A model generated the notes under the pieces. It saw nothing but the letters and a program-made list of their open reading frames with translations. It did no database searches and was not told the origin of the DNA. Shown piece after piece: positions 9,704 through 46,092 of a stretch of DNA of 64,000 nt. Numbering within the stretch: the first letter of the stretch is position 1; the number at the start of each line of letters is the position of its first letter. Source of the stretch: Ruminiclostridium sp. Lineage in GTDB: Bacteria > Bacillota > Clostridia > Oscillospirales > Ruminococcaceae. The stretch covers positions 6,193-70,192 of the forward strand of contig JAZSBN010000052.1 of the NCBI GenBank assembly GCA_045602405.1, in the 5' to 3' direction. Both the position numbers and the translations under genes were made by a program.

Positions 9704-10072
9704 TTACAACGCCTTCGCCGTCTTGTCTCCCCTCTTGAAAAGAAGGGCTACAAGCAGTCCTGCTATAACGGCGGCGGTTATACCTGCGGCACCCGATTGA
9801 AGCCCCCCCATAAAGGCACCGATCAGACCGTTTTCCGTTACCGCAATATGAACACCCTTCGCAAGAGTATAGCCGAAGCCTGTAAGAGGAATTGTCGCTC
9901 CCGCCCCTGCAAATTCCACAAGCGGCTCATACCAGCCGAGGCCGCCTATGATAACTCCTGCCACAACATAAATAACCAGTATTCTCGCAGGCGTCAGCTT
10001 CGTTAAATCAATAAGAAGCTGACCCACGGCACAAAGTGCGCCGCCCACAAGAAATGCCCATAAAAATTCCAT
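9704..10072 (-). CDS. spoVAE: Stage V sporulation protein AE (SpoVAEb-type)
   Basis: AFLVGGALCAVGQ, GAGATIPLTGFG; last gene of spoVA operon. Confidence 0.9.
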   Translation of the reverse strand: MEFLWAFLVGGALCAVGQLLIDLTKLTPARILVIYVVAGVIIGGLGWYEPLVEFAGAGATIPLTGFGYTLAKGVHIAVTENGLIGAFMGGLQSGAAGITAAVIAGLLVALLFKRGDKTAKAL

Positions 10073-10075
10073 AGC

Positions 10076-11092
10076 TTAATCCCTTTCTCCGCTTAAATGT
10101 ATAGCGTGTGAAATTCCGGGAATACTTTCCCCCTGCTGTACCAGCGTTGTTGACATAAGTGCGCCCGTAGCCGCAAACAACACATTTTTCAGCTCCCCGT
10201 TCCTTATCCTGTCAAGCACATGACCGCATAGTACCGAGGCACTGCAGCCACAGCCTGAGCCGCCTGCATGGACATCCTGTTTATCCCTGTCAAAAAGCAT
10301 CAATCCGCAGTCGTTGTAACGGTCTCCGAGGCTTACTCCATCCTGAAGAAAAAGATCGCGGAGAAGCTCTGCTCCTACTGCGCCAAGATCTCCTGTAAGT
10401 ATCAGGTCGTAATCCTCGGGAGAGGTTTTTGTGTTCTTGAAATGAAGCCTTATGGTGTCGTAGGCGGCAGGCGCCATAGCCGCTCCCATATTATTTGCGT
10501 CCTTTATACCCATGTCCTGAATCTTACCGAAGGTAACAGCTTTTATGAAGGGAGGCTTGTCCGACTTTCCCACAACAGCACAGCCGCTTGCTGTAGCCGT
10601 CCATTGAGCAGTAGGTGGTCTCTGTCCGCCATAGGTTTCGGGAAAACGGAACTGTCGTTCGGCGGAACAGAAGTGAGAGGAGGTCAGTGCAACGTTATAC
10701 TCTCCTATTCCGTTATCGGCGAATACTGCCGCCATACCAAGGCTTTCCGCCATAGTGGAGCAGGCTCCGTATAACCCGATAAAATGTGCTCCTATATCCC
10801 TTATGCTGTAGGCTGAGCCTGTACACTGATTGAGAAGGTCTCCTGCGAAAATAAAGCTTATTTCGCCCTCGGATATTCCTCCCTTTGAAAGAGCGTGCTC
10901 CACAGCGTGCTGCTGAAGCCTGCTCTCCGCCTTTTCCCAGGTGTTTTCCCCGAAGGTTGAATCCTCGCTTACATAGTCAAAGCAGCTTCCGAGAGGCCCT
11001 TCCCCCTCCATTCGTCCTACTGCCGAGCCGTAGGAGATAACCGAAGGGGTATTTTCTAAAATTACAGTACCGTGCTTGATATAACCGCTCAT
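10076..11092 (-). CDS. spoVAD: Stage V sporulation protein AD
   Basis: EGEGPL, WEKAES, GDLLNQ, YGACST, SSHFCSAERQFR, GGSGCGC. Confidence 0.95.
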   Translation of the reverse strand: MSGYIKHGTVILENTPSVISYGSAVGRMEGEGPLGSCFDYVSEDSTFGENTWEKAESRLQQHAVEHALSKGGISEGEISFIFAGDLLNQCTGSAYSIRDIGAHFIGLYGACSTMAESLGMAAVFADNGIGEYNVALTSSHFCSAERQFRFPETYGGQRPPTAQWTATASGCAVVGKSDKPPFIKAVTFGKIQDMGIKDANNMGAAMAPAAYDTIRLHFKNTKTSPEDYDLILTGDLGAVGAELLRDLFLQDGVSLGDRYNDCGLMLFDRDKQDVHAGGSGCGCSASVLCGHVLDRIRNGELKNVLFAATGALMSTTLVQQGESIPGISHAIHLSGERD

Positions 11093-11100
11093 TTTCCCTC

Positions 11101-11544
11101 CTAAGAAAGCCTCACAAGATAAAGAATAATCCCGTAGATGACCGACGCCGAAAGCCCGTAAACTATAACAGGTCCTGCAATAACGAAAAGCTTTGCTCCT
11201 ACGCCGAGAACATAGCCCTCTGTCTTGAATTCCAGTGCAGGAGACACAACAGCGTTAGCGAAGCCTGTAATCGGAACAAGGGTTCCTGCGCCGCCGAATT
11301 TTGCTATTTTATCGTAAAGTCCCAGACCTGTCAGAATTGCACTGAGGAAAATCATGGTGACCGAAGTGAGAACTCCTGCCTCGGTTTTCGACATTCCTGC
11401 AAGAGTATAGAGGTTTATAAAGGACTGACCGATACAGCATATCGTTCCGCCTATAAGAAAGGCCATAGGTACAGTTTTATAAAGCTTCGTATTGGGCGAA
11501 CGCTTTTTCGCAAGTCCGCCGTATTCGGTTTTTGTCATTCTCAT
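11101..11544 (-). CDS. spoVAC: Stage V sporulation protein AC
   Basis: AFLIGGTIC, GAGTLVPITGFAN, EFKTEG, IAGPVIVYG. Confidence 0.92.
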   Translation of the reverse strand: MRMTKTEYGGLAKKRSPNTKLYKTVPMAFLIGGTICCIGQSFINLYTLAGMSKTEAGVLTSVTMIFLSAILTGLGLYDKIAKFGGAGTLVPITGFANAVVSPALEFKTEGYVLGVGAKLFVIAGPVIVYGLSASVIYGIILYLVRLS

Positions 11545-15506: not shown

Positions 15507-16097
15507 TTATTCTCCAATCTTAGCACGGATATAATCCACGATTATATCAACCGTTTTTTCAATTCCGATTTCCGAGCTTACGGAAATATCGTAGGTCTGA
15601 GCCTTACCCCACTGGTCATCGGCAAAGTAGTTGTAGTAGGCAACTCTGCTCTTATCCTTCTTCTGGACATAGGCCTTGTAATTTTCAGCCTTTTCCTGAT
15701 AAACGTCACGGACACGCTCCGCTCTCTTTTCAAGAGGAGCATGAATGAACACGTTGATTACATTCTCACATTCACGAAGCACATAATCAGCACATCTTCC
15801 TACGATAACACAGCTTTCCTTGTTATAGAGATCCTTGATAACCCTGGACTGTGCTATAAAAATCATATCTGACGCAGGAAGAATCTGGCTTCCGATATAG
15901 AGGTGATATAAAAGGCTCTGTGTGCGCTTCTGGTCGTTCTGGCGGATAAAATCCTCGGTATATCCGCTTTCCTTGGCTACAAGCGAAAGAAGCTCGCCGT
16001 CGTAATACTTGAATCCAAGCTTTTCGGCAACAAGCTTACCGATATCCCTACCGCCTGAACCGTATTCTCTCGAAATTGTGATAACTGTTTTTTTCAT
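15507..16097 (-). CDS. Cytidylate kinase-like family protein
   Basis: ITISREYGSGG P-loop variant, IVGRCAD. Confidence 0.85.
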   Translation of the reverse strand: MKKTVITISREYGSGGRDIGKLVAEKLGFKYYDGELLSLVAKESGYTEDFIRQNDQKRTQSLLYHLYIGSQILPASDMIFIAQSRVIKDLYNKESCVIVGRCADYVLRECENVINVFIHAPLEKRAERVRDVYQEKAENYKAYVQKKDKSRVAYYNYFADDQWGKAQTYDISVSSEIGIEKTVDIIVDYIRAKIGE

Positions 16098-16114
16098 CTG
16101 ACAAGCCCCCTTGA

Positions 16115-16768
16115 TTAAATTGTATAATAAACAGCAAGCGTTCCCTTTCTGACGGAAATTATTGCTGTCTTATCCGTAAATTCATTGCTTACGCCCAGCG
16201 GAAAGGTGTTCCTTAAGGTATAGTCGGAAAGCTCATATTTGAGCCCCTTTAAATCCACGCCCTCGGAAACGTCTGACAGAGAAAAAACCGAGACATATTC
16301 TCCCTTTTTTCCGCTAAGAGTTATTTTTCCGTCCTTTACGGCAGTAATCCCGTAGCCCTCGCCGAAGATTACACCGTCACAGCCTCTTTCCGCAAGAGAC
16401 GCTAAAAGCTGTATATTGGCAAGAGTATGGTCAAGCCTTCCGCCTGTACCGCCGTAGATGAAGAAGCTTTTACAGCCCTTCCTGATTCCTGCCTCCGCCG
16501 CCTCGTAAAGGTCGGTGGTATCCTTTTCACAAGGAAGAGTTACTACCTTTTCGGAAGCATTCTCGAAAGTATTGGCAGGACTTTCTCCGAGAGAATCGAA
16601 ATCCCCTATTACATAATCAGGGACTATCTGAAGCTCTCTGAGCCATCGGAGACCGCCGTCGGCGGCAATAACCATATCTCCCTCACAGGGCTTCTCATAA
16701 AGAGAGGTTTTTTCCCCTGCACCGAAGATAAAGCAGCTTTTTCCGATTGTATCCTCCAAGACTATCAC
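16115..16768 (-). CDS. thiN: Thiamine diphosphokinase
   Basis: AADGG, GDFDS, EKDTTD, GGRLDHTLAN, LGVSNE; own promoter TTGACA-N17-TATAAT near 16780-16810. Confidence 0.93.
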   Translation of the reverse strand: MIVLEDTIGKSCFIFGAGEKTSLYEKPCEGDMVIAADGGLRWLRELQIVPDYVIGDFDSLGESPANTFENASEKVVTLPCEKDTTDLYEAAEAGIRKGCKSFFIYGGTGGRLDHTLANIQLLASLAERGCDGVIFGEGYGITAVKDGKITLSGKKGEYVSVFSLSDVSEGVDLKGLKYELSDYTLRNTFPLGVSNEFTDKTAIISVRKGTLAVYYTI

Positions 16769-16821
16769 TTCCTTAACTTATTATACAATTTTATCCCGAT
16801 TTTGTCAATACCGCACAAAAA

Positions 16822-17454
16822 TTATAAAAAAGAAATTAGTTTTTCAGCAGTTATTTCCGATAATTCAACCTTGCCGTCAAACTCACACTTATATCCGCAA
16901 GCACTTATAAACCCGTTTTCACAGGTAAGGCATACTGCCTCGCCATTTTCAATAAGGCTGTCGGCGGAAAAAGCGGAAAAGCCCTCCTGAAAGCCCTTTC
17001 CTGTTAGCTTACCCCTGCTCTCCTTGATACACCAGAGACGGCATATCTCCCTATCCTTATCGTCACAGCTTCTTACACGCTCCATTTCTTCGGATGTACA
17101 GAATTTTTCCGCCGCACGAATTGTTATAGGGCGTATATGCTGGATGTCGATACCCGTTTCCTTCTCCGTAACCGTACACATCACTATATTCCCCGAATGG
17201 CTTATATTGAAGGATAAATCAATATTTTCCATAAAGGGCTTACCGTGACCCCTGAAGCTGAATACAGGACAAGCATCGATACCGTAATCCTTTTTCAGGA
17301 TATAACGCAGGACTGCATAGGAAAAAGCGGAGCAAAGCTTAGCGTTAAGGCTTTTCTTATCGTCACAGTAACAACGCCTCTGCTCCGAAAGCAAAGGCGT
17401 TATACGTTCATATTCTTCTTCGGAGCAGTTGAATTTCAACCAATAAATTTTCAT
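16822..17454 (-). CDS. Sfp-type 4'-phosphopantetheinyl transferase
   Basis: GKP, FNISHSG, GIDIQ, WCIKES. Confidence 0.88.
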   Translation of the reverse strand: MKIYWLKFNCSEEEYERITPLLSEQRRCYCDDKKSLNAKLCSAFSYAVLRYILKKDYGIDACPVFSFRGHGKPFMENIDLSFNISHSGNIVMCTVTEKETGIDIQHIRPITIRAAEKFCTSEEMERVRSCDDKDREICRLWCIKESRGKLTGKGFQEGFSAFSADSLIENGEAVCLTCENGFISACGYKCEFDGKVELSEITAEKLISFL

Positions 17455-18533
17455 TGCATCAGTATACGCTCGTCACAGTATTCACATTCAAGGACATCGC
17501 CCGAACGCTTGAAGCTGTGAGGGAGATAATGCTCGGTATTGGTTATACACTTAAGATTTGTACAGCAGATATCCTTATGCTCCTCGCCCTTAAGAATAGG
17601 CCTCGGCATAAGCTTATAGTCAAGCATACAGAGTATAAGTGCCATACGGACATACATACCGTAATTAGCCTGCTTGAAATAAAGGGCACGGGGGTCGTCG
17701 TCCACCTCTACTGCAATTTCGTCAACACGGGGCAGAGGATGAAGAACGATAAGCTCCTTTGACGCAAGCTTCATTTTCTTTGCATCGAGGCAGTATACAT
17801 CCTTCTGTGCCTCATATTCCTCGGGGGTAGCGAAACGCTCACGCTGAATACGGGTCATATAGAGTACGTCAAGCTTCGGAATAGCCTCCTCGAGAGTTCT
17901 GTACTCCTCGTAGGTCTTTCCGCTTGCGGAGATATAGTCCTTGATATAGGTGGGAACCTTAAGCTCCTCGGTGGAGATAAGTATGAAGTGATTTCCGTTA
18001 TAGCAGGACAGTGCCTTTAAGAGAGAATGTACGGTTCTGCCGTTTTTAAGGTCGCCGCAGAAGCCTACTGTAAGGTTTTCGAGACGTCCCTTTTCTTCCT
18101 TAAGAGTAAGAAGGTCGGTAAGGGTCTGTGTAGGATGAAGGTGACCGCCGTCTCCTGCGTTTATAACGGGGCAGTCAGCCGAAAGTGCCGCCGCCTTCGC
18201 CGCACCCTCAAGGGGATGACGCATTACAAGTATATCGGAATAGCCGCTTACTATTTTTGTTGTGTCCTTTAGGTTTTCACCCTTGGCTACTGAAGAAGAG
18301 GAAGGATTATCAAAGCCGATTATTCCTCCGCCGAGACGAAGCATAGCTGTCTGGAAGCTCATCTGTGTACGGGTAGAAGGCTCATAGAAAAGCGTACCCA
18401 TTATCTTACCGCGGCAGGCTCCTGCATAAACAAGAGGAGCAGTCATAATCTCATGAGCAAGATTCAGAATAGTGTTCCACTGGGACGGGGAGAAATCGTT
18501 AAGGTCGATAAGGTTGGAAATATTATCCTGCAT
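17451..18533 (-). CDS. pyrB: Aspartate carbamoyltransferase with C-terminal PyrI-like Zn domain
   Basis: FYEPSTRT, HPTQTL, GDLKNGRTVHS, YMTRIQRER, HPLPR; C-terminal CTNLKC...CEYC. Confidence 0.95.
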   Translation of the reverse strand: MQDNISNLIDLNDFSPSQWNTILNLAHEIMTAPLVYAGACRGKIMGTLFYEPSTRTQMSFQTAMLRLGGGIIGFDNPSSSSVAKGENLKDTTKIVSGYSDILVMRHPLEGAAKAAALSADCPVINAGDGGHLHPTQTLTDLLTLKEEKGRLENLTVGFCGDLKNGRTVHSLLKALSCYNGNHFILISTEELKVPTYIKDYISASGKTYEEYRTLEEAIPKLDVLYMTRIQRERFATPEEYEAQKDVYCLDAKKMKLASKELIVLHPLPRVDEIAVEVDDDPRALYFKQANYGMYVRMALILCMLDYKLMPRPILKGEEHKDICCTNLKCITNTEHYLPHSFKRSGDVLECEYCDERILMQ

Positions 18534-18569: not shown

Positions 18570-18598
18570 ATTATATCACCCGCTACGAAAAAAGTCAA
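18570..18598 (-). promoter_or_regulatory. Sigma-A promoter of pyrB
   Basis: TTGACT-N17-TATAAT. Confidence 0.7.
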
Positions 18599-18626: not shown

Positions 18627-18655
18627 TTGACAACAGTATATATATATGATAGAAT
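18627..18655 (+). promoter_or_regulatory. Sigma-A promoter of metK
   Basis: TTGACA-N17-TAGAAT with TG extension. Confidence 0.75.
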
Positions 18656-18675
18656 GTACTTGTTACAAAATAGTC

Positions 18676-18785
18676 CTTATCAAGAGCAGTGGAGGAACAG
18701 GTCCTGTGAAGCTGCGGCAACCCTTCGTTTTTACCTGTGTAATGCGAAAATGGTGCCAAATCCTGCGCCCATGGCGAAAGATGAG
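18676..18785 (+). ncRNA. SAM-I (S-box) riboswitch
   Basis: CTTATCAAGAG...GGAGG...GCAACC...GGTGCCAA.TCC...AAGATGAG directly upstream of metK. Confidence 0.95.
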
Positions 18786-18805
18786 GGAGTGGATATAAAA
18801 ATTTC

Positions 18806-18827
18806 GCTCCCAATAGGGAGCTTTTTT
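18806..18827 (+). terminator. Riboswitch-controlled terminator
   Basis: GCTCCC-AATA-GGGAGC-TTTTTT. Confidence 0.85.
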
Positions 18828-18865: not shown

Positions 18866-20041
18866 ATGGCAAAGTTTTTATTTACATCCGAAAGCGTTAC
18901 CGAAGGACATCCCGATAAAATCTGTGACTGTATCTCCGATAGCGTACTTGACGCACTTTTAGCTCAGGACCCTATGTCCCGTGTAGCCTGTGAAACCTGT
19001 ACAACAACAGGTATGGTTATGGTTATGGGCGAAATTACAACAAAGGCAACAATCGACATTCCCTCTATCGTAAGAGAGGCTGTAAGAGAAATCGGCTATG
19101 ATAACGCTGAATACGGCTTCGACTGCAACACCTGTGCAGTTCTCACAACTCTCGACAAGCAGTCTCCCGACATCGCTATGGGCGTAGACAACGCTCTCGA
19201 GGGAAGAGAAGAAAACGCAATGGATACAGGTGCAGGCGACCAGGGTATGATGTTCGGTTACGCTTGTAACGAAACTAAGGAGCTTATGCCTCTTCCTATC
19301 TCCCTTGCGCAGAAGCTTGCAAAGAAGCTTACTGACGTAAGAAAGAGCGGAGAGCTCGATTATCTCCTTCCCGACGGAAAGTCTCAGGTTACTGTTGAAT
19401 ACGTTGACGGTAAGCCCAAGAGAGTTGACACAGTAGTTATCTCCTCCCAGCATAAGGCTTCCGCTACTCTCGAACAGATCCGTAAGGACGTTATCGAAAA
19501 GATTATAAAGACTACTATTCCTGCAGAATTACTCGACGATGAAACAAAGTATTTCGTAAACCCCACAGGACGCTTCGTAGTAGGCGGACCTCAGGGCGAC
19601 AGCGGTCTTACAGGACGTAAGATTATCGTTGATACATACGGCGGATACGCTCGTCACGGCGGCGGTGCATTCTCCGGTAAGGACCCGACAAAGGTTGACC
19701 GTTCGGCAGCTTACGCGGCAAGATATGTTGCAAAGAACATTGTTGCAGCAGGACTTGCTGACAAGTGTGAGGTTGAAATCGCATACGCTATCGGCGTAGC
19801 TAAGCCTGTTTCTGTTCTCGTAGATACCTTCGGTACAGGTAAGGTAAGCGACGAAAAGCTTTCCGACGCAGTAGCAGAAGTATTCGACCTTCGTCCCGCA
19901 GCTATCATTTCTACACTCGAGCTCAGAAAGCCCCAGTATAAGGCTCTCTCCGCTTACGGTCACATGGGCCGTGAGGATCTCGGCGTAGCATGGGAAAGAA
20001 CCGATAAGATTGACGCTTTAAAGGCGGCAGTAGCTAAGTAA
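18866..20041 (+). CDS. metK: S-adenosylmethionine synthetase
   Basis: [28 protein letters not shown]. Confidence 0.98.
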
Positions 20042-38788: not shown

Positions 38789-39745
38789 ATGTGTACAAGT
38801 ATAGCCATAAGAAAGAGCGGCTTCTGCTTCGGGAGAAATATGGATATAGACTATTCCTTCAATGAACAGGTTGTTGTTGCTCCTCGGAATTTCCCCCTCA
38901 TATTCAAAAAAATTCCGCTTCTTTCCCACCATTACGCCTTTATCGGAACAGCCGCAGTCAGGAACAGCATTCCCCTTTATGCAGAGGGAATGAACGAAAA
39001 GGGGCTTTGTATTGCCGCTCTTAAGTTTCCTGACAACGCTTTTTACCTCGAGAAAAGTAATCCCGAAAAGAATGCGGCGGCTCCCTACGAAATTATTCCC
39101 CTTATTCTCGGGAAATGCAGTTTCGTAAAGGAAGCCGCCGAGCTTCTTTCTGTAACTGATATAATAAATGAGCCTTTCGACAGCGATACTCCCCTTTCTC
39201 CCCTTCACTGGCATATTTCAGATAAGGAGAGCTCAATAACCGTAGAGCACACTCGCGAGGGCATGAAAATATACGATAATCCTTATGATATTCTTACAAA
39301 TAATCCGCCCTTTCCCTTTCATCGGGAAAATCTTTCGCTTTATCTGGGACTTACTGCCGCTCAGCCTGAAGCACAGAAGGAGCTGAAGCCTTTCGGACTG
39401 GGCTTCGGGGCAGTAGGCCTGCCCGGAGACTTTTCTCCTGCATCAAGATTTGTAAGGGGAAGCTTCCTGCTTAAAAATTCCCCGAGCGGTATAAATCCCG
39501 TAACACAGCTTTTCCATATTCTCGAGGGCGTTTCTATTCCGAAAGGAGCGGTAATAACCCCCGATGCAAAATTCCACTATACTACCTATACCTGCTGTAT
39601 GGAGGCGAAAACTCTTACCTATTATTATAAGACCTACCGAAGCGGAAGTATATGTGCAGTAAAAATGACAGAGAAAACGATGGAACGGAATGAGCTTATA
39701 CGCTTTCCTCAGATTAACGAACAGAAATTTATACTTCAGAACTGA
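38789..39745 (+). CDS. Choloylglycine hydrolase/penicillin V acylase family Ntn-hydrolase
   Basis: N-terminal MCT, GRNMD, MNEKGL, LTNNP, LPGDFSPASRF. Confidence 0.9.
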   Translation: MCTSIAIRKSGFCFGRNMDIDYSFNEQVVVAPRNFPLIFKKIPLLSHHYAFIGTAAVRNSIPLYAEGMNEKGLCIAALKFPDNAFYLEKSNPEKNAAAPYEIIPLILGKCSFVKEAAELLSVTDIINEPFDSDTPLSPLHWHISDKESSITVEHTREGMKIYDNPYDILTNNPPFPFHRENLSLYLGLTAAQPEAQKELKPFGLGFGAVGLPGDFSPASRFVRGSFLLKNSPSGINPVTQLFHILEGVSIPKGAVITPDAKFHYTTYTCCMEAKTLTYYYKTYRSGSICAVKMTEKTMERNELIRFPQINEQKFILQN

Positions 39746-40432
39746 CTATAAACCATATTTTATCCTTATCCGTTCAAGCTTGTCTCCGAAGGGCTTTCCC
39801 AGGAAGAACAGGAAGATAAAATTAGAAACGGAATAAAGTATGGTATAAGGAACAGCGGTAAGAAGCGACGATAGATAAAGTGTCATATTAAAGCCCCCGT
39901 CATACCACATCACCGACCATACGTCCATTACAAGAGAATAGACTATTCCTGCCATAACGCCATAAATCAGAAGTAAAGCCCTGTGCTTTTTAAGAGGAGC
40001 GGAAAGATAGCCCGCTATAAGCCCGATAAGCCCCCAGGCAAGCATCTGAAAGGGCGTCCATGGCCCCTGACCGAAATAAAAATTTGAAATAAGGGCGGAA
40101 AGTGAGCCCACGAGAAAGCCAGCTTCCTTTCCGAGATATACCGCCGCAATAACGGTAATAGCCGTCACAGGCTTAAAGAAGGGGATAAATCTGCCCACAA
40201 CGCAGAGTGCAATCATGACAGCCGCTATTACCATACGTCTTGAGCCGATGTTTTTATTTTCGACGCCTGCCGTAAAAAGAAACAGGCTGAAAACCGCCGC
40301 ACAGAGAGAAATAATAAGATGCCGCTTTTCCGCCATGGCAGTTGAGCCGATTACCGCAAGAAGCGGTATTATCACGAAGGGCACAAGTATTTTCAAAGCT
40401 CTTTTAAGCCCGTTATTTTTTATAACTATCAT
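39746..40432 (-). CDS. cbrT: ECF S component, CbrT-like (cobalamin)
   Basis: FKPVTA, SNFYFGQGPWTPFQM; in B12-riboswitch operon. Confidence 0.8.
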   Translation of the reverse strand: MIVIKNNGLKRALKILVPFVIIPLLAVIGSTAMAEKRHLIISLCAAVFSLFLFTAGVENKNIGSRRMVIAAVMIALCVVGRFIPFFKPVTAITVIAAVYLGKEAGFLVGSLSALISNFYFGQGPWTPFQMLAWGLIGLIAGYLSAPLKKHRALLLIYGVMAGIVYSLVMDVWSVMWYDGGFNMTLYLSSLLTAVPYTILYSVSNFIFLFFLGKPFGDKLERIRIKYGL

Positions 40433-42060
40433 ACTGCACTTCCCTTATTTTTTAGACAAAGAGCCTCGACCTCACCGAGAGTAACGGCATTATCATAATG
40501 ACCGCGGCTTATGCGGCTTGCGGCGGTGGTATAGAAATTATTGTCGGAGAAGAGCCTGTCGGGAGTATCCACGGAGGCGATACCGCCCCTGAAAAAAAGC
40601 CCGCACCTGTCGCCGCATTCCGCCGCAAATTCAGCGTCATGAGTAACGATTATTATTGTCATGCCGTCAGCCTTCAGCTTTTTTATTACATCAGAAAGAC
40701 GGTTTTTCGAGTCGGCGTCAAGTCCCTTTGTAGGCTCGTCCATGAGAAGAAGCCTCGGCTTTGCTCCGAGAGTTTTTGCGAGGGCGACAAGCTGCTGTTC
40801 GCCGCCCGAAAGGTCGTAGGGGTGCTTACTGTAAAGAGGCGATAAATCGAATGGCAGAAGCTCTTCCCCTGCCTTTGCCTCAGAAAGCTCCTCGGCTACG
40901 GTATTTTTCATGAATATCGTCTGTACGTCCTGAGGAAGCATGGCGAGACATTCGCTGTAAAGGCTTCTGTTGATATATTTTCTGAGTGGTTTTCCGAAAA
41001 CCTCGATCTTACCGCTATAGGGCTTTATAAGATCTGCCGCCGCCGATAAGGCAGTAGTTTTTCCCGACCCGTTTCCGCCGAGAATACAGAATATCTCTCC
41101 CTCGTATACCGAAAGGCTGAGTCCCTTCAGAATATCGGGAGAATTTTTTTCATACCTGAAATAAACATCCTTAAAGGAAAGGGCTGTTTTTTCAGAATGT
41201 ACATAGGTGGGTCTTTCACATAGTCTTATATCGTTACGGAAATTATTCAGGAGAAATTTCCGCCCCTCTCTTACATCAAGGGGACATTCTCCGCCGACGT
41301 TAAGGCTGTGATAGAGTCTTACTGCCGCAGGCATAGAAAAAAGAAGCTTTTGGTTCTCTCCGATTTCTCCTGTTACCTTCCGAGGGGTATCACAGCAAAT
41401 CATCCTTCCTTTTTCAATTACCATAAGCCTGTCGCTTAAGGGTATAACCTCTTCAAGCCTGTGCTCAACCATAATTACCGTAAGACCAAGCTCACGGTTA
41501 AGCTTTTTGACAGTACCGATAAATTCCGAAGCGGCTATGGGGTCAAGCTGTGCGGTTGGTTCATCGAGAATCAGCACCGAGGGATTCATAACCATTACAG
41601 CGGCAAGATTTAAAAGCTGCTTCTGACCGCCCGAAAGCTCGCTTACGTCCTTTTCAAACCATTCCTCGATACCGAAATAAGCCGCCATTTCGGCAATCCT
41701 GCTATGAATAGCGCTTCTTTCCGTTCCGAGATTTTCAAGCCCGAAGGAAAGCTCGTGCCATACTTTATCCGTCACAAGCTGTTGTTCAGGCTTCTGCATG
41801 ACGAAACCTATTTCTCCTGCGGAAGTTCTTTCATCAAGCTCCGAAAGCTTCTTTCCGCAGTAATATACCTCGCCATCCTTGTCGCCCTTAGGAGCAAGCT
41901 CACGCTTTAGCATTCTCAGAAGCGTGGATTTTCCGCAGCCCGTTGAGCCGCAGACAGAGATAAATTCGCCCTGTTCAACGGAAAAGGAGATATTTTCGAG
42001 AGCCTTACCTTCGCAAAGGGGATAGGTAAAGCTCAGATTTTCAACTCTGAAAATTTCCAA
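40429..42060 (-). CDS. ECF transporter fused double ATPase
   Basis: GSTGCGKS and GGNGSGKT, two LSGG signatures. Confidence 0.92.
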   Translation of the reverse strand: MEIFRVENLSFTYPLCEGKALENISFSVEQGEFISVCGSTGCGKSTLLRMLKRELAPKGDKDGEVYYCGKKLSELDERTSAGEIGFVMQKPEQQLVTDKVWHELSFGLENLGTERSAIHSRIAEMAAYFGIEEWFEKDVSELSGGQKQLLNLAAVMVMNPSVLILDEPTAQLDPIAASEFIGTVKKLNRELGLTVIMVEHRLEEVIPLSDRLMVIEKGRMICCDTPRKVTGEIGENQKLLFSMPAAVRLYHSLNVGGECPLDVREGRKFLLNNFRNDIRLCERPTYVHSEKTALSFKDVYFRYEKNSPDILKGLSLSVYEGEIFCILGGNGSGKTTALSAAADLIKPYSGKIEVFGKPLRKYINRSLYSECLAMLPQDVQTIFMKNTVAEELSEAKAGEELLPFDLSPLYSKHPYDLSGGEQQLVALAKTLGAKPRLLLMDEPTKGLDADSKNRLSDVIKKLKADGMTIIIVTHDAEFAAECGDRCGLFFRGGIASVDTPDRLFSDNNFYTTAASRISRGHYDNAVTLGEVEALCLKNKGSAV

Positions 42061-42905
42061 CGTAAAGCCTCCTTTATCTCGATAATTGAGGGTAGAAAAA
42101 CAAGTATTCCATAGGAAATGTATGCAGTTATACTTCCTGCGTCCGTCTCAGGAAAGGAAAAATAAGGATAGTATGAGCCGCCCGTCATGCTGTGGCCGAA
42201 AAGAGTAAGAGCAGTAAGCGCCAACGACGAAATAAGAAGCAGTATGTCTCGGCTTCTCCAGCGGAAAAGAGAATAGCTTGTGCGTTTTCCTGTACCGTAG
42301 CCCCTTGCAGTCATACTGTCAGCGGTTACTATTCCGTTTTCAAGCCCCCAGGTTATCAGTATGCTGAAAACCTGAAGCCTGCCCTTCATCCTGTCGATTA
42401 TATTGTCATCCTTATACAGTCCGAGGGCCTTTCGTGAATTCTCCGTCTTTTTAAGCTGTCGGCTGAATAATGGAACAAAGCGGAGCGCCATTGAAAGAAT
42501 AAGGGAAAGCGTAGGAGATAACGCACCGAAAATATAAAGAAGCTTATCGCTTGTCATTATCTCGGTAAAGCTTCTGAAGCGATAAAGCACGGATATTATC
42601 ATAAGAGCGGAAAATATACCGTAGATAAGAGCTTCAAGGGTAACAGGATTATCATTCATAATAAAAATTACCGTTACGCCGTTATGATTGAAAAGCGGAT
42701 TTACTGCTGACATTACTATAAAAAAGAGAAGCGAAAAAAGATGAAAGCCCTTATCCTTAAGGCCGTTCCTTATAAGGCAGTACACCAACGCACTCACAAA
42801 GGAAAGGGCAAGAATAACGGGATTCATCGAAAACATAGCTATCGCCGCACCGCCAAGAATACAGACGGTAACGGCTATAGGATTGTAACAGTCAAAGCTC
42901 CGCAT
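42033..42905 (-). CDS. ECF T component
   Basis: ALRFVP, SMTARGYG. Confidence 0.9.
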   Translation of the reverse strand: MRSFDCYNPIAVTVCILGGAAIAMFSMNPVILALSFVSALVYCLIRNGLKDKGFHLFSLLFFIVMSAVNPLFNHNGVTVIFIMNDNPVTLEALIYGIFSALMIISVLYRFRSFTEIMTSDKLLYIFGALSPTLSLILSMALRFVPLFSRQLKKTENSRKALGLYKDDNIIDRMKGRLQVFSILITWGLENGIVTADSMTARGYGTGKRTSYSLFRWRSRDILLLISSLALTALTLFGHSMTGGSYYPYFSFPETDAGSITAYISYGILVFLPSIIEIKEALRWKFSELKI

Positions 42906-42914
42906 AATTTCACC

Positions 42915-44537
42915 TTACTTAAGGTCATTACCCATTTCACAGGTATATAACCACTCAATTCTGTCTCCGTCAGAAAGCTTATAGTCAGCACAATTCACCG
43001 AGGCAGATTCGCCATTCACGAAATACATCCAGCCTGATAAATCTCCGAAGTCAAATTCGTACAGATAATTCATTCCCGATATATAGGGCATATCGGAAGA
43101 GCCTGTATATTCAAGCTGTATACCATGCTTTTTTACGGCCTCAACAAGAATATCGAAAACGCTTTCGCCTTCTTCGATTAAAAAGCTGTCCTCTATAATT
43201 TTTCCGTCAGAAGGAATATACTCCCCATCGGATTTTCCCGTAACAGTATGACATCTCACGGAAAGTGTTACCGTTCCCACAGGGTTTTCCTTGACGGTAC
43301 TTTCTCCGTAATACTCTGAAGGAGTGCTGAACTCCGTGAAGCTTACGAAAAGTATTGCTCCTGCCGCAATAACAGCTACTACTATAATATTCTTGATGCT
43401 TCTTCGCTTCGTAGCAAGAAGTATTATTACAATTATCAGCGCCAACACCGCTATACTGAGAGAAGCCCACAGCTTATAGCTTAAAGGCTCTTTCTCGGGT
43501 ACAGTATCATTTTCTTCCGCTTCCTCTGTTGCAGTAGTCTCCTGTGAAGGTGCGTCTGTAACAGCTTCCTCAGCAGAAGGCTCGTTCACACCAATGATAT
43601 AATAGGGCGCCTTCTCCTCGTTCATACGGATATAGGCAATAAGCGAAGAGAAAACCTGTACCGTAGCCATGTCGGAGTATTCCTCTTCATAGCCGTGGCT
43701 GTAGCCGCCATTTTCCTTCAGGAAAAGCTTCAACGCGTCAAAAACGGTATTTCCGTCCTTGATAAAACGCTCGTCGCTTACAGGGTCAATACCGATAGAT
43801 GACAACGCAATAATAACCTGCGCCGTACTTTCGGAATTCGGTACGCCGTAGCTTGAAAAGCTTCCATCCTGAAGCTGTCTTACAGAGAGTAATTCTACCG
43901 CACTGTCCACAACCTCTCTTACCTGTTCATCACTTTCGTAGTAAGGCGCAAGAGCTTGAACTGTCATAGCGGTTACGTCAACGTCTCCTGTATCTCCTCT
44001 TATCGCCCAGCCTCCGTCAGAGGTTTTCATGGATAACAGAGTTCCGATTACCTCGTCGGTGGTAAAGCGTGAGGAGGTATATCCGTTATTCATGATATGG
44101 AGCCCGTAGACCCAGCTCATTATTCCCTGTTCGCCTATAGCACCATCAAGAATTTCCGTGATCTTCTCCTCGTTTCCGCCTGAGGGAATAAGAAGAAGCC
44201 CGTATTTGAGCCGTGTAACGGCGGAGCGTATTTCGTTCTCCGAAATATATTTTCCCAGAGCCTTTCCGTAAGCGGTAAAATCATAACTACCGCTCTGGTT
44301 AAGAGCAAGCACATACCATTCCGAATTTTTTCCTGCATTTTCAGTAAGCTCGCCGTCTATCCATTCCTGAAGGCTGTCCGCCTCCCCGGAAGCAAGCTTT
44401 AAATCCAGTATACCGTCGGCAAGGCTCTTAGCCTCACCGACAGCATTACTGCCTTCCGCCGAAACGGTTACTCCGCCGAAAACAAGAACAAGTGAAAGAA
44501 AAAAGCTTACTGCAAATTTTAAAAGCTTATTTTTCAT
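42915..44537 (-). CDS. Secreted alpha-barrel (prenyltransferase/squalene-cyclase-like repeats) + TM hairpin + DUF4430 domain
   Basis: Signal peptide; repeats KTSDGGW, DVDVTAMTVQAL, QLQDGSF, NSESTAQVIIAL; C-terminal YLYEFDFGDLSGWMYFVNG. Confidence 0.8.
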   Translation of the reverse strand: MKNKLLKFAVSFFLSLVLVFGGVTVSAEGSNAVGEAKSLADGILDLKLASGEADSLQEWIDGELTENAGKNSEWYVLALNQSGSYDFTAYGKALGKYISENEIRSAVTRLKYGLLLIPSGGNEEKITEILDGAIGEQGIMSWVYGLHIMNNGYTSSRFTTDEVIGTLLSMKTSDGGWAIRGDTGDVDVTAMTVQALAPYYESDEQVREVVDSAVELLSVRQLQDGSFSSYGVPNSESTAQVIIALSSIGIDPVSDERFIKDGNTVFDALKLFLKENGGYSHGYEEEYSDMATVQVFSSLIAYIRMNEEKAPYYIIGVNEPSAEEAVTDAPSQETTATEEAEENDTVPEKEPLSYKLWASLSIAVLALIIVIILLATKRRSIKNIIVVAVIAAGAILFVSFTEFSTPSEYYGESTVKENPVGTVTLSVRCHTVTGKSDGEYIPSDGKIIEDSFLIEEGESVFDILVEAVKKHGIQLEYTGSSDMPYISGMNYLYEFDFGDLSGWMYFVNGESASVNCADYKLSDGDRIEWLYTCEMGNDLK

Positions 44538-45363
44538 TTTTTCTCATACTATTTCTTGCACAGTATACTGCACAAGCGGCAACCATGGCAAGTCCGCCGA
44601 AAACCGCAACAGATTCAACGCCTGTATCGGGGTTGTCCTTTGATACCTCTGCTGCTGTGTCGGAAGAAGCCTCCTTTGCGGAAATTTCCGCAATACAAAC
44701 AGGCGGAACAAGAGTCATAGCGTCGGATACCGCGCTTATAACTACCGAGCCTGCATTAGAAACTGTGATTTCCGCTTTACCCTCGCTGTCGGTAACATAT
44801 TCGGTAGCTTCGCCGTTAAAGGTGATTACTGCACCCTCTACGGGAAGGGTTATGGGAGCGAAGCTTTCATCATAGCCTGCGGCAGAAAGAGTAAGTGTAA
44901 TCTTCTCGCCCTGTTCGGCTTTCGCTGTGTCCGTGTCAAAGAAGCTGTAGGTATCCGACCATGCTGTTAAATCAGTGTAAATATATGCATAAACATGATC
45001 GCCGTCCCTAACGGTATCATTAAGGCTCATAGCCGAAGCGTTATTTACACAATAACCGTAGCTTCCGCCATTGTCCACGCCCCAGAGCTTCTTTATCGCT
45101 CTTCCGTAGTCTCCGTCATAGGCTTCATAGCCGTCCTCGCCATTGTAGCTTGCTTCATGAGCCGCAGAAAGTGCCTCGTCAATATCAAAAGCTCCGTCGC
45201 CGTTGATGTCAGTTACAGTAACCTTTTCCCTTGCCATAGCAAGCTTTCCGTTTTCGTCCGCTACAGAAACATAAACCTCTGCCGAAGCCTCCGCCGAAGC
45301 TGTTACAGCTAATGCGCCTGTCGCTAAAATTCCGCTTAATAAAACAGTTAATGTCTTTTTCAT
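44527..45363 (-). CDS. Cell-wall-anchored DUF4430-like protein
   Basis: Signal peptide; KLWGVDNGGSYGYCVNN; C-terminal NPDTG, hydrophobic stretch and basic tail. Confidence 0.75.
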   Translation of the reverse strand: MKKTLTVLLSGILATGALAVTASAEASAEVYVSVADENGKLAMAREKVTVTDINGDGAFDIDEALSAAHEASYNGEDGYEAYDGDYGRAIKKLWGVDNGGSYGYCVNNASAMSLNDTVRDGDHVYAYIYTDLTAWSDTYSFFDTDTAKAEQGEKITLTLSAAGYDESFAPITLPVEGAVITFNGEATEYVTDSEGKAEITVSNAGSVVISAVSDAMTLVPPVCIAEISAKEASSDTAAEVSKDNPDTGVESVAVFGGLAMVAACAVYCARNSMRKNEK

Positions 45364-45366
45364 TTT

Positions 45367-45624
45367 TTATACCTCGTTTTCATTTTTCGGGCTGTCGTTT
45401 TTACTGCTCTTTCGGGTAGGAGTACTGCCCGTTTCCTTCTCCTTACAGGATTTTCTTTCCTTTAGTCCTGCCGCCTCGAGAGCTCTTGGCCACGGCCCGA
45501 GAAATGCCTTTATACGGGATCTGGTAACTTCATCGAAATCATCCTTCTTAGGCATTCTTCCCAGCTCATGGCTCTTATTTCTTAAAAGTTCTACCGCCCA
45601 GCCCTTTTTTTCCTCTGAAATCAC
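45367..45624 (-). CDS. Small protein resembling the homing-endonuclease-associated repeat
   Basis: ELGRMP....LGPWPRALEAAGL; AAAAGGAGG favours GTG start at 45624. Confidence 0.7.
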   Translation of the reverse strand: MISEEKKGWAVELLRNKSHELGRMPKKDDFDEVTRSRIKAFLGPWPRALEAAGLKERKSCKEKETGSTPTRKSSKNDSPKNENEV

Positions 45625-45645
45625 ATTATCCCTCCTTTTCATGAA

Positions 45646-45678
45646 ATAAAAAGCTCCCCGAGCCTAAGGTCAGGGAGC
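45646..45678 (-). terminator. Riboswitch-controlled terminator
   Basis: GCTCCC/GGGAGC stem followed by UUUUUAUUU on the minus strand. Confidence 0.75.
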
Positions 45679-45803
45679 ACAACAGACTTATTGCACAGCA
45701 AATCAAAGCCCCCGAAAACGACAAATCGCACAGGAAGCTATAAGCTGTAAAATAAAATCGGTTGCACTCTTCTCACCAAAGCAGCGGTTAACCTTATAAA
45801 GCT

Positions 45804-45980
45804 ACGGCAGGTATCCTGACTTATGACGAAGCCTGCGGCTGCGGAAGGGGCCTTCTCAGGATTATCCCAATGGCTTTTCCCGTTCCTCTTGTCAATTACA
45901 GTAATGGCGGTTGTTCCGGATTCTGACCGGATTCCCTCTTGGCCTACTAAGCTTATGCCTTTCGGAACCGTAACCTCTTA
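45804..45980 (-). ncRNA. Cobalamin riboswitch
   Basis: GGGAATCCGGT..AATCCGG...ACTGTAA...GCCA.TG...GAAGG...AAGTCAGGATACCTGCC; promoter TTGAAA-N17-TATACT at 46027-46000. Confidence 0.93.
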
Positions 45981-46092
45981 TTTCATTTTTGATGTATACA
46001 GTATATCACATCGGCAATAATTTTTCAATAACAAAATTTTAAGATTATTTCCTCCCTGTGCTCCTGTTTTTATGCAGTATCATTAAAACAGG

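Follow-up and report, generated by a model that had tools for sequence, protein, structure and literature searches.

A clostridial aspartate carbamoyltransferase fused to the zinc domain alone of the PyrI regulatory chain

A 64,000-nucleotide (nt) stretch of a Ruminiclostridium sp. contig (assembly GCA_045602405.1, contig JAZSBN010000052.1, positions 6,193 to 70,192; this whole stretch is the window, and all coordinates refer to it) carries a reverse-strand gene, here called pyrB-Zn, that joins an aspartate carbamoyltransferase (ATCase) catalytic chain to the zinc half, and only the zinc half, of the regulatory chain PyrI. Among the explanations weighed, the best, and one we consider probable, is that the product is a class B PyrB with a fused zinc-only PyrI remnant, which would serve as a built-in structural module and leave the enzyme without PyrI-type nucleotide control. 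The complete coding sequence lies at 17451..18533 (-) and comprises 360 amino acids (aa) and a TGA stop, as defined by the list of open reading frames (ORFs), by TIGR00670 and by the Pfam domains OTCace_N, OTCace and PyrI_C. Its catalytic core, aa 1-304 (17622..18533 (-)), contains the carbamoyl-phosphate and aspartate domains and a C-terminal helix at 285-304, and was delimited from Pfam, from individual residues and from an AlphaFold2 (AF2) model compared by Foldseek. A linker, aa 305-321 (17571..17621 (-)), leads to the PyrI-type zinc domain, aa 322-360 (17454..17570 (-)), which was recognised from PF02748, from identity to PyrI, from a profile search of the PDB, from the fold of the tail and from the ratio of non-synonymous to synonymous differences (pN/pS).

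Several kinds of evidence bear on the identity of the tail. Pfam PyrI_C (PF02748) matches aa 322-357 at 30.3 bits, against a gathering threshold of 23.4 (E 3.7e-7, profile positions 6-43 of 48), and no other zinc-ribbon family of Pfam matches the protein at E<=1. The peptide quoted in the preliminary description of this DNA, ICCTNLKCITNTEHYLPHSFKRSGDVLECEYCDE, is aa 322-355 (window 17469-17570), and the span given there, 17451-17590, corresponds to aa 315-360 plus the stop; both the peptide and its Cys spacing were read correctly, the ligand set being C324/C329/C350/C353. The motif C324-x4-C329 ... C350-x2-C353 aligns residue for residue with C109/C114/C138/C141 of Escherichia coli PyrI, and the codons of the four predicted zinc ligands lie on the reverse strand at 17562..17564 (TGT, Cys324, equivalent to PyrI Cys109), 17547..17549 (Cys329, PyrI Cys114), 17484..17486 (Cys350, PyrI Cys138) and 17475..17477 (Cys353, PyrI Cys141). 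The first Cys of the 'CC' pair, C323, varies among homologues and, judged from the alignments, is not a zinc ligand. The similarity extends beyond the ligands, as residues 311-356 align with E. coli PyrI 96-144, ungapped to the first Cys pair, with N326 in the place of N111, and R311-P312-I313-L314 of the linker aligns with the PyrI interdomain linker R96-P97-S98-L99, a region in which P97 and P100 are named linker residues (PMC13168310). BLASTP against a 145-aa clostridial PyrI aligned 48 aa of the tail with PyrI residues 91-138 at 44% identity (E 3e-10), and when a profile of 24 tails was compared with the PDB, the top 11 matches were all PyrI chains. Folded alone by AF2, the tail forms a confident small beta domain, with a block-mean predicted local distance difference test score (pLDDT) of about 90 or higher over residues 21-60. 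Among its top 20 PDB matches in Foldseek only ATCase regulatory chains appear, at probabilities of 0.63-1.0 (0.89 or higher for all but one) and root-mean-square deviations of 1.3-3.3 A over 35-41 columns; so short a domain gives these 20 matches only weak E-values, 0.09-0.8. At the level of models, the structure prediction that the preliminary description had named as a check came out in its favour. A generic zinc ribbon was also considered and is ruled out, as no other Pfam ribbon matches and ribosomal zinc-ribbon structures reach a probability of only 0.25 or less. Four lines thus agree (alignment, clostridial PyrI, PDB profile and tail fold) that the tail is by homology the PyrI zinc domain, as had first been claimed.

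The other half of PyrI does not accompany it. PF01948, the nucleotide-binding domain of PyrI, has no Pfam match in the 360-aa protein, and TIGR00240, which represents complete PyrI, scores 12.3 bits against a cut-off of 148.55. Nor is there room for an allosteric domain, since merely 17 residues (305-321) separate the last PyrB helix from the zinc domain. The pairing foreseen in the preliminary description, of PyrI_C without PyrI_N on a PyrB too compact to hold the missing domain, is accordingly what the profiles find. Its further statement that the protein differs from the known full PyrBI fusions holds as well, for the model of those fusions (NF009916, ~525 aa) gives 111.9 bits against a cut-off of 800 and covers aa 48-307 only, and a score so far under the cut-off, on the catalytic part alone, places the protein outside the PyrBI-fusion family; the pyrB-Zn layout probably arose independently of these fusions.

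The nucleotide half of PyrI could instead be encoded elsewhere and bind the fused zinc domain, or a complete second pyrI could compete with it. Such a division would be in keeping with the scattering of pyr genes in these genomes and with neighbours of pyrB-Zn that are not conserved, and the search for pyrI spanned loci and window rather than whole genomes. However, a hidden Markov model (HMM) of the PyrI N-domain, whose positive controls gave 1e-46 and 1e-48, found nothing in the window and 81 related loci (~1.3 Mb; best E 5.5), a span that takes in 10 kb on either side of the gene in 81 genomes together with the 64-kb window, and no PF01948-like ORF was found there around any of the 81 gene copies. 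In E. coli PyrI, residues F145-N153 pack against the allosteric domain. The tail of pyrB-Zn ends ~6 residues past its last Cys and has no equivalent of this segment, and the domain interface would need to be rebuilt between separate chains, all of which makes a regulator in two pieces very unlikely. A database search with the clostridial PyrI N-domain returned Clostridium sensu stricto PyrI only and is uninformative on Oscillospiraceae.

The catalytic part appears intact. Pfam OTCace_N matches aa 7-146 (E 5e-43) and OTCace aa 153-302 (E 4e-32), and the protein belongs to the NCBIfam aspartate carbamoyltransferase family TIGR00670 with 333.6 bits against a cut-off of 236.95, with NF002032 at 311 bits (cut-off 263). 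It retains the catalytic residues S53 T54 R55 T56, S80, K84, R105, H133, Q136, R166, R228, Q230 and L267-P268-R269, and the equivalents of E. coli S52 T53 R54 T55, S80, K84, R105, H134, Q137, R167, R229, Q231 and L267 are kept in 81/81 sequences, that is, in the window and the 80 loci retained from a genome scan (below). In all 81 the carbamoyl-phosphate motif has Gln at its last position, reading STRTQ in place of the usual STRTR (E. coli Arg56 -> Gln57; codon at 18363-18365). The full-length AF2 model matches solved ATCases in Foldseek with a template-modelling score of ~0.9, the matches being confined to the catalytic part. The closest PDB relatives of the core are the PyrI-associated catalytic chains of Pyrococcus abyssi (292 bits), Moritella (283 bits), Methanocaldococcus jannaschii (279 bits) and E. 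coli (271 bits), as against 134 bits for the Bacillus subtilis class C enzyme and 73 bits for the Aquifex class A enzyme. The gene is thus predicted to encode a working ATCase of the PyrI-associated (ATC II / class B) lineage. The placement of the core in this lineage gives the gene the look of a pyrB-pyrI pair minus PyrI residues 1-~90, and a candidate for the arrangement from which it came is a clostridial pair (L088) in which a 306-aa pyrB, 58% identical to the window core, is followed one base later by a 145-aa pyrI. The most likely origin, as read from these sequences, is the in-frame loss of the pyrB stop and of ~90 pyrI codons from a pair of this clostridial type. The proposal of a 'distinct ATCase class' therefore survives in part: it is a fair working label, drawn from domain architecture alone, but the core sits phylogenetically inside the class B lineage.

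PyrB-Zn is a conserved family rather than a one-off or an artefact. Nearly all of the top 120 database homologues (70-99% identity, 326-405 aa) have the same three Pfam domains, and a pattern scan of GTDB species-representative genomes returned at least 305 matching stretches. The pattern was built on 8 tails and demands the exact peptide ECEYCDE, so that genomes with any other form are not counted and 305 is a lower bound. Eighty loci from the scan were kept and, with the window, form the set of 81 sequences used for conservation and context; all 80, from independent genomes, encode a full-length protein of ~360 aa. The hosts are nearly all gut or rumen metagenome-assembled genomes (MAGs) named Oscillospiraceae, Ruminococcus or 'Ruminiclostridium sp.', and a cultured isolate, Ruminococcus albus 8 (EGC03263.1, UniProt E9SBS7), is a member of one 90% cluster. 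The tail profile also recovers remoter full-length fusions with core identity as low as 45-50%. One of them, from a GC-rich organism (locus L084, P0203), is a PyrB-Zn of 394 aa whose linker is long and rich in Ala and Pro and whose gene directly follows pyrF; the layout thus extends beyond Oscillospiraceae, and in some lineages it lies within a pyr cluster. Near-typical Oscillospiraceae-type pyrB-Zn genes, with ~70-81% identity to the window protein, also occur in genomes labelled Sodaliphilus, Prevotella and Roseburia (L036, L059 and L021), and these probably reflect contamination in MAG binning rather than transfer.

Selection has acted on the tail as well as on the enzyme. The four ligand Cys show no variation in 121 database homologues or in the 81 sequences, and G316 of the linker, N326 and F341 vary little or not at all. 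In 137 pairwise comparisons of sequences, the core has a pN/pS of 0.116 and the zinc domain one of 0.128, so that the tail is constrained as strongly as the core; the linker, at 0.30, is under looser selection than its flanks, and its length is conserved. A gut metatranscriptome contig of ~96% identity spans 17302-17560, across the tail and into the following gene, although this is weak evidence for expression, as DNA carry-over is possible. These data also bear on the notion that the tail is a non-functional remnant or a product of misassembly or frameshift. Metagenome-derived protein sets do contain many fragmentary and chimeric ORFs with the tail (e.g. P0151, P0122, P0126 and P0229), which speaks for such a notion. 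However, it is hard to reconcile with a full-length ORF in 80/80 related loci, a cultured isolate that has the gene, the low pN/pS of the tail, the invariant ligands and the metatranscriptome contig over the tail, and we give it almost no credence.

How the zinc module may work can be approached from PyrI itself, in which binding to the catalytic subunit falls to the zinc domain, while the nucleotide site lies in the other domain, through whose dimerisation two trimers are joined (PMC13168310; PMC6022934). We propose that the Cys4-Zn module of pyrB-Zn would fold as in PyrI and pack on the catalytic chain at the surface that receives the PyrI zinc domain, around the 130s loop and beside the active site, where once docked it would be a permanent structural and kinetic element. 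With the nucleotide-binding and dimerising domain gone, regulatory dimers would not bridge the trimers into a 2(c3):3(r2) dodecamer, and CTP, UTP and ATP signals would not be received through PyrI. The assembly to be expected is a (c-Zn)3 trimer, possibly a pair of trimers, and pyrimidine control would lie elsewhere in the pathway. In E. coli, the zinc-domain residues N111, N113, E142 and K143 belong to a network of hydrogen bonds at the interface, close to the 130s loop and the active site, with N111r as an interface residue and K143r stabilising the T state through an r1-c4 contact (bioRxiv 10.1101/662718). The 130s loop of the pyrB-Zn core is conserved, N111 corresponds to the invariant N326, and E142 to D354. 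In the full-length AF2 model (predicted template-modelling score 0.88), linker and tail have pLDDT values of 79-92 (the linker 79-86, with no regular secondary structure), and this confidence suggests that the domain is docked and not floppy. The E. coli catalytic trimer and an isolated zinc-domain fragment, studied by Markby, Zhou and Schachman in PNAS in 1991, reportedly form a stable complex with markedly altered, non-cooperative kinetics, and the fused Thermotoga enzyme that Chen et al. described in 1998 is reported to be a trimer; both fit the picture of a zinc module.

The same module might, however, act between trimers. If the ~17-residue linker were long enough for each zinc domain to dock on a catalytic chain belonging to a second trimer, or to make an r1-c4-type contact, the zinc domains could staple two trimers into a hexamer (D3) with aspartate cooperativity but no nucleotide-binding domain. 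The linker has features that would suit this role, namely its conserved length, the invariant Gly316 and the PyrI-like R-P-x-L, and the constraint on the tail equals that on the core. There is also a precedent of sorts in class B enzymes, whose trimers are held via regulatory chains with zinc domains that bind the catalytic chains (PMC13168310). However, the dimerising domain that bridges the trimers there is missing from pyrB-Zn, and K143r, which makes the r1-c4 contact of the T state, is replaced by Glu. The AF2 monomer puts the tail confidently on its own chain, though a monomer model cannot do otherwise. The fused Thermotoga enzyme, apparently the only one characterised, is reported as a trimer, which also speaks against stapling. 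Docking in trans of this kind is therefore unlikely in our judgement, without being negligible.

A structural module with no PyrI-type nucleotide control nevertheless has several observations to contend with, and the following weigh against it. The equivalent of K143r is Glu and that of N113r is Lys, Arg or Asn, so that the interface is not simply conserved. A monomer prediction does not separate docking in cis from docking in trans, whether the partner is the module's own, a neighbouring or an opposite-trimer chain. A pyrI lying farther from the gene than the span covered by the HMM search could supply the missing regulator. In addition, nucleotide control may be reached by another route, as in plant ATCase, where UMP inhibits at the active site (PMC7878868).

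The tail profile also recovered a large and diverse second family, of 346-374 aa, mostly from Oscillospiraceae and Clostridia MAGs (P0180, P0181, P0145, P0390-P0466 and others; loci L085, L089, L090, L091 and L092). In its members the PyrB fold is retained, as is the Cys4 tail, but nearly all catalytic residues are replaced, e.g. 'DRNAK' for 'STRTR', with loss of the equivalents of S52, R54, T55, S80, K84, R105, H134, Q137, R167, R229 and Q231. Among 121 sequences checked (the 120 best clusters matching P0180, plus P0145), 76 are catalytically dead; NCBI names one of these pseudo-ATCases a 'hypothetical protein'. A 3-residue deletion in the hairpin is common to the pseudo-ATCases and the live fusions, and the dead family appears to have branched off from the PyrB-Zn layout as a pseudo-enzyme. 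In the 4/4 pseudo-ATCase loci with annotated neighbours (L089-L092), a Flavodoxin_2/FMN_red gene lies downstream, and in one lineage (L091 and L092) there follow a 535-aa gene without a Pfam match and then ZnuA/ABC zinc-uptake genes.

These neighbours lend some colour to the suggestion that the Cys4-Zn site is kept mainly as a sensor. The tail would unfold under oxidation or when zinc is scarce, making the ATCase less stable or less active, and in these strict anaerobes pyrimidine synthesis would thereby follow redox or zinc status. The site is invariant, the dead paralogues adjoin an FMN-reductase-like gene and, in one lineage, ZnuA-type zinc-uptake genes as well, and a switch of this sort would be compatible with the structural-module idea. 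However, the gene in the window has neither FMN-reductase-like nor zinc-uptake neighbours, and the zinc site of E. coli PyrI is regarded as purely structural, so that we allow the switch only a very small chance. A broader interpretation is that PyrB-Zn is a fourth natural quaternary and regulatory type of ATCase, in which the core depends on a zinc clamp by the 130s loop and the scaffold has been reused as the pseudo-ATCase. The enzyme would then either be fixed in a high-affinity, non-cooperative form or have two trimers stapled together, with cooperativity arising independently of nucleotides, and the pseudo-ATCase would have acquired a new, non-enzymatic role linked to its FMN-reductase-like partner. 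This interpretation is possible, but we put it forward tentatively and as more doubtful than not.

A promoter-like sequence, TTGACT-17 nt-TATAAT with an extended -10 TG, lies at 18570..18598 (-), ~35 nt 5' of the pyrB-Zn ATG; it agrees with the consensus at 11 of 12 positions, and a promoter function is predicted from that match. Its position leaves no room for an attenuator, and no PyrR element was found on the pyrB-Zn strand or leader even at E<=10, nor any other leader RNA on that strand. Beyond pyrB-Zn, Pfam searches of ~45 ORFs of the 64-kb window revealed no other pyrimidine gene and no pyrI. The earlier remark that neither pyr genes nor a PyrR attenuator adjoin the gene is thereby confirmed for the window. 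Across the 80 related loci no pyr gene lies beside pyrB-Zn, and the neighbours are not conserved, Ruminococcus and P0106 contexts alike.

Directly downstream is a 4'-phosphopantetheinyl transferase gene (16822..17454 (-), an ORF with a Pfam ACPS match), whose ATG overlaps the pyrB-Zn stop (ATGA), so that the two are probably co-transcribed. Together with a thiamine pyrophosphokinase gene and a cytidylate-kinase-like gene it occupies 15507-17454 (-) after pyrB-Zn; the pyrophosphokinase gene has its own promoter-like site of perfect consensus (16808-16780), and a terminator-like hairpin at 15298-15267 closes the group. The transferase and pyrophosphokinase genes recur as neighbours in 15/80 related loci and the kinase-like gene in 8/80, and no functional link of the three to the ATCase is evident. 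On the other side, the divergent metK (18866-20041 (+)) has a leader, 18627-18821 (+), which comprises a promoter-like site, the SAM-I riboswitch at 18674-18787 (85.8 bits) and, at 18806-18821, a terminator-like hairpin; the riboswitch and promoter take up most of the intergenic space beside pyrB-Zn. Farther away, a cobalamin riboswitch (45789-45987, 97.5 bits) stands upstream of an operon in 39746-45987 (-) that probably specifies B12-related uptake; its genes encode a DUF4430 protein, a CbiQ-like permease, a double ABC ATPase and an ECF S-component. A gene of the choloylglycine (bile salt) hydrolase family (38789-39742 (+)) and a spoVAC-spoVAD-spoVAE operon (9704-11544 (-)) point to a spore-forming gut Firmicute as host, and reads and contigs place the host in bovine and other gut metagenomes.

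The databases already contain this domain combination, but every member is named 'aspartate carbamoyltransferase', and because all bear this plain name, current annotation hides the layout. Full-text literature searches, with subscription-only papers outside their scope, found no study of an enzyme composed of PyrB and the zinc domain only; in the EVcomplex paper ATCase appears only among the datasets. ATCase is a textbook model of allostery in which the regulatory chain has always been viewed as two cooperating halves, and earlier only engineered E. coli fragments addressed the zinc half alone. A widespread natural enzyme that has just this half may thus be considered a ready-made experiment on its contribution to stability, to tuning of the active site via the 130s loop and to assembly. 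It also bears on pyrimidine control in the abundant gut and rumen Oscillospiraceae and Ruminococcus, in which no PyrI, PyrR leader or pyr operon is apparent around the gene. As the cultured R. albus carries it, these questions are directly testable.

Comparison with characterised ATCases helps to place the enzyme. Its core is of the same lineage as E. coli PyrB (class B), and its tail is homologous to PyrI 96-144, including the four Cys and the equivalent of N111r. However, it lacks PyrI residues 1-~95, its zinc domain forms one polypeptide with the catalytic chain, has a hairpin 3 residues shorter and misses the C-terminal ~9 residues, and the gene has no leader or attenuator of the pyrBI kind. 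PyrB-Zn thus has the catalytic-chain lineage of class B but not the bridging, CTP/ATP-binding regulatory dimers, the domain for these being absent and the quaternary type being judged here from sequence. Class B regulatory subunits occur 'fused or unfused' (PMC6022934), and the Thermotoga-type PyrBI fusion remains allosteric, as the title of the 1998 paper by Chen et al. (cited in PMC6022934) indicates. The PyrBI proteins of Thermotoga maritima and Treponema denticola (NF009916) resemble pyrB-Zn in being one polypeptide with PyrB before PyrI, but they keep the whole of PyrI, whereas the window protein, at 360 aa, has the zinc half only. The class C trimer of B. subtilis is likewise a Firmicute enzyme, PyrI-type nucleotide control is expected to be absent from both, and pyrB-Zn, too, is probably a trimer; however, class C has no zinc domain and pyrB-Zn has a fused PyrI_C and belongs to another lineage, as the low score of its core against the B. 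subtilis enzyme indicates, which places it outside class C. The E. coli complex that Markby and colleagues reportedly assembled in 1991 also combines a catalytic chain with the zinc domain only, in a 1:1 ratio, and may by analogy be the best guide to the behaviour of pyrB-Zn. That complex was artificial, non-covalent and made of E. coli parts, whereas pyrB-Zn is a natural covalent fusion in Clostridia.

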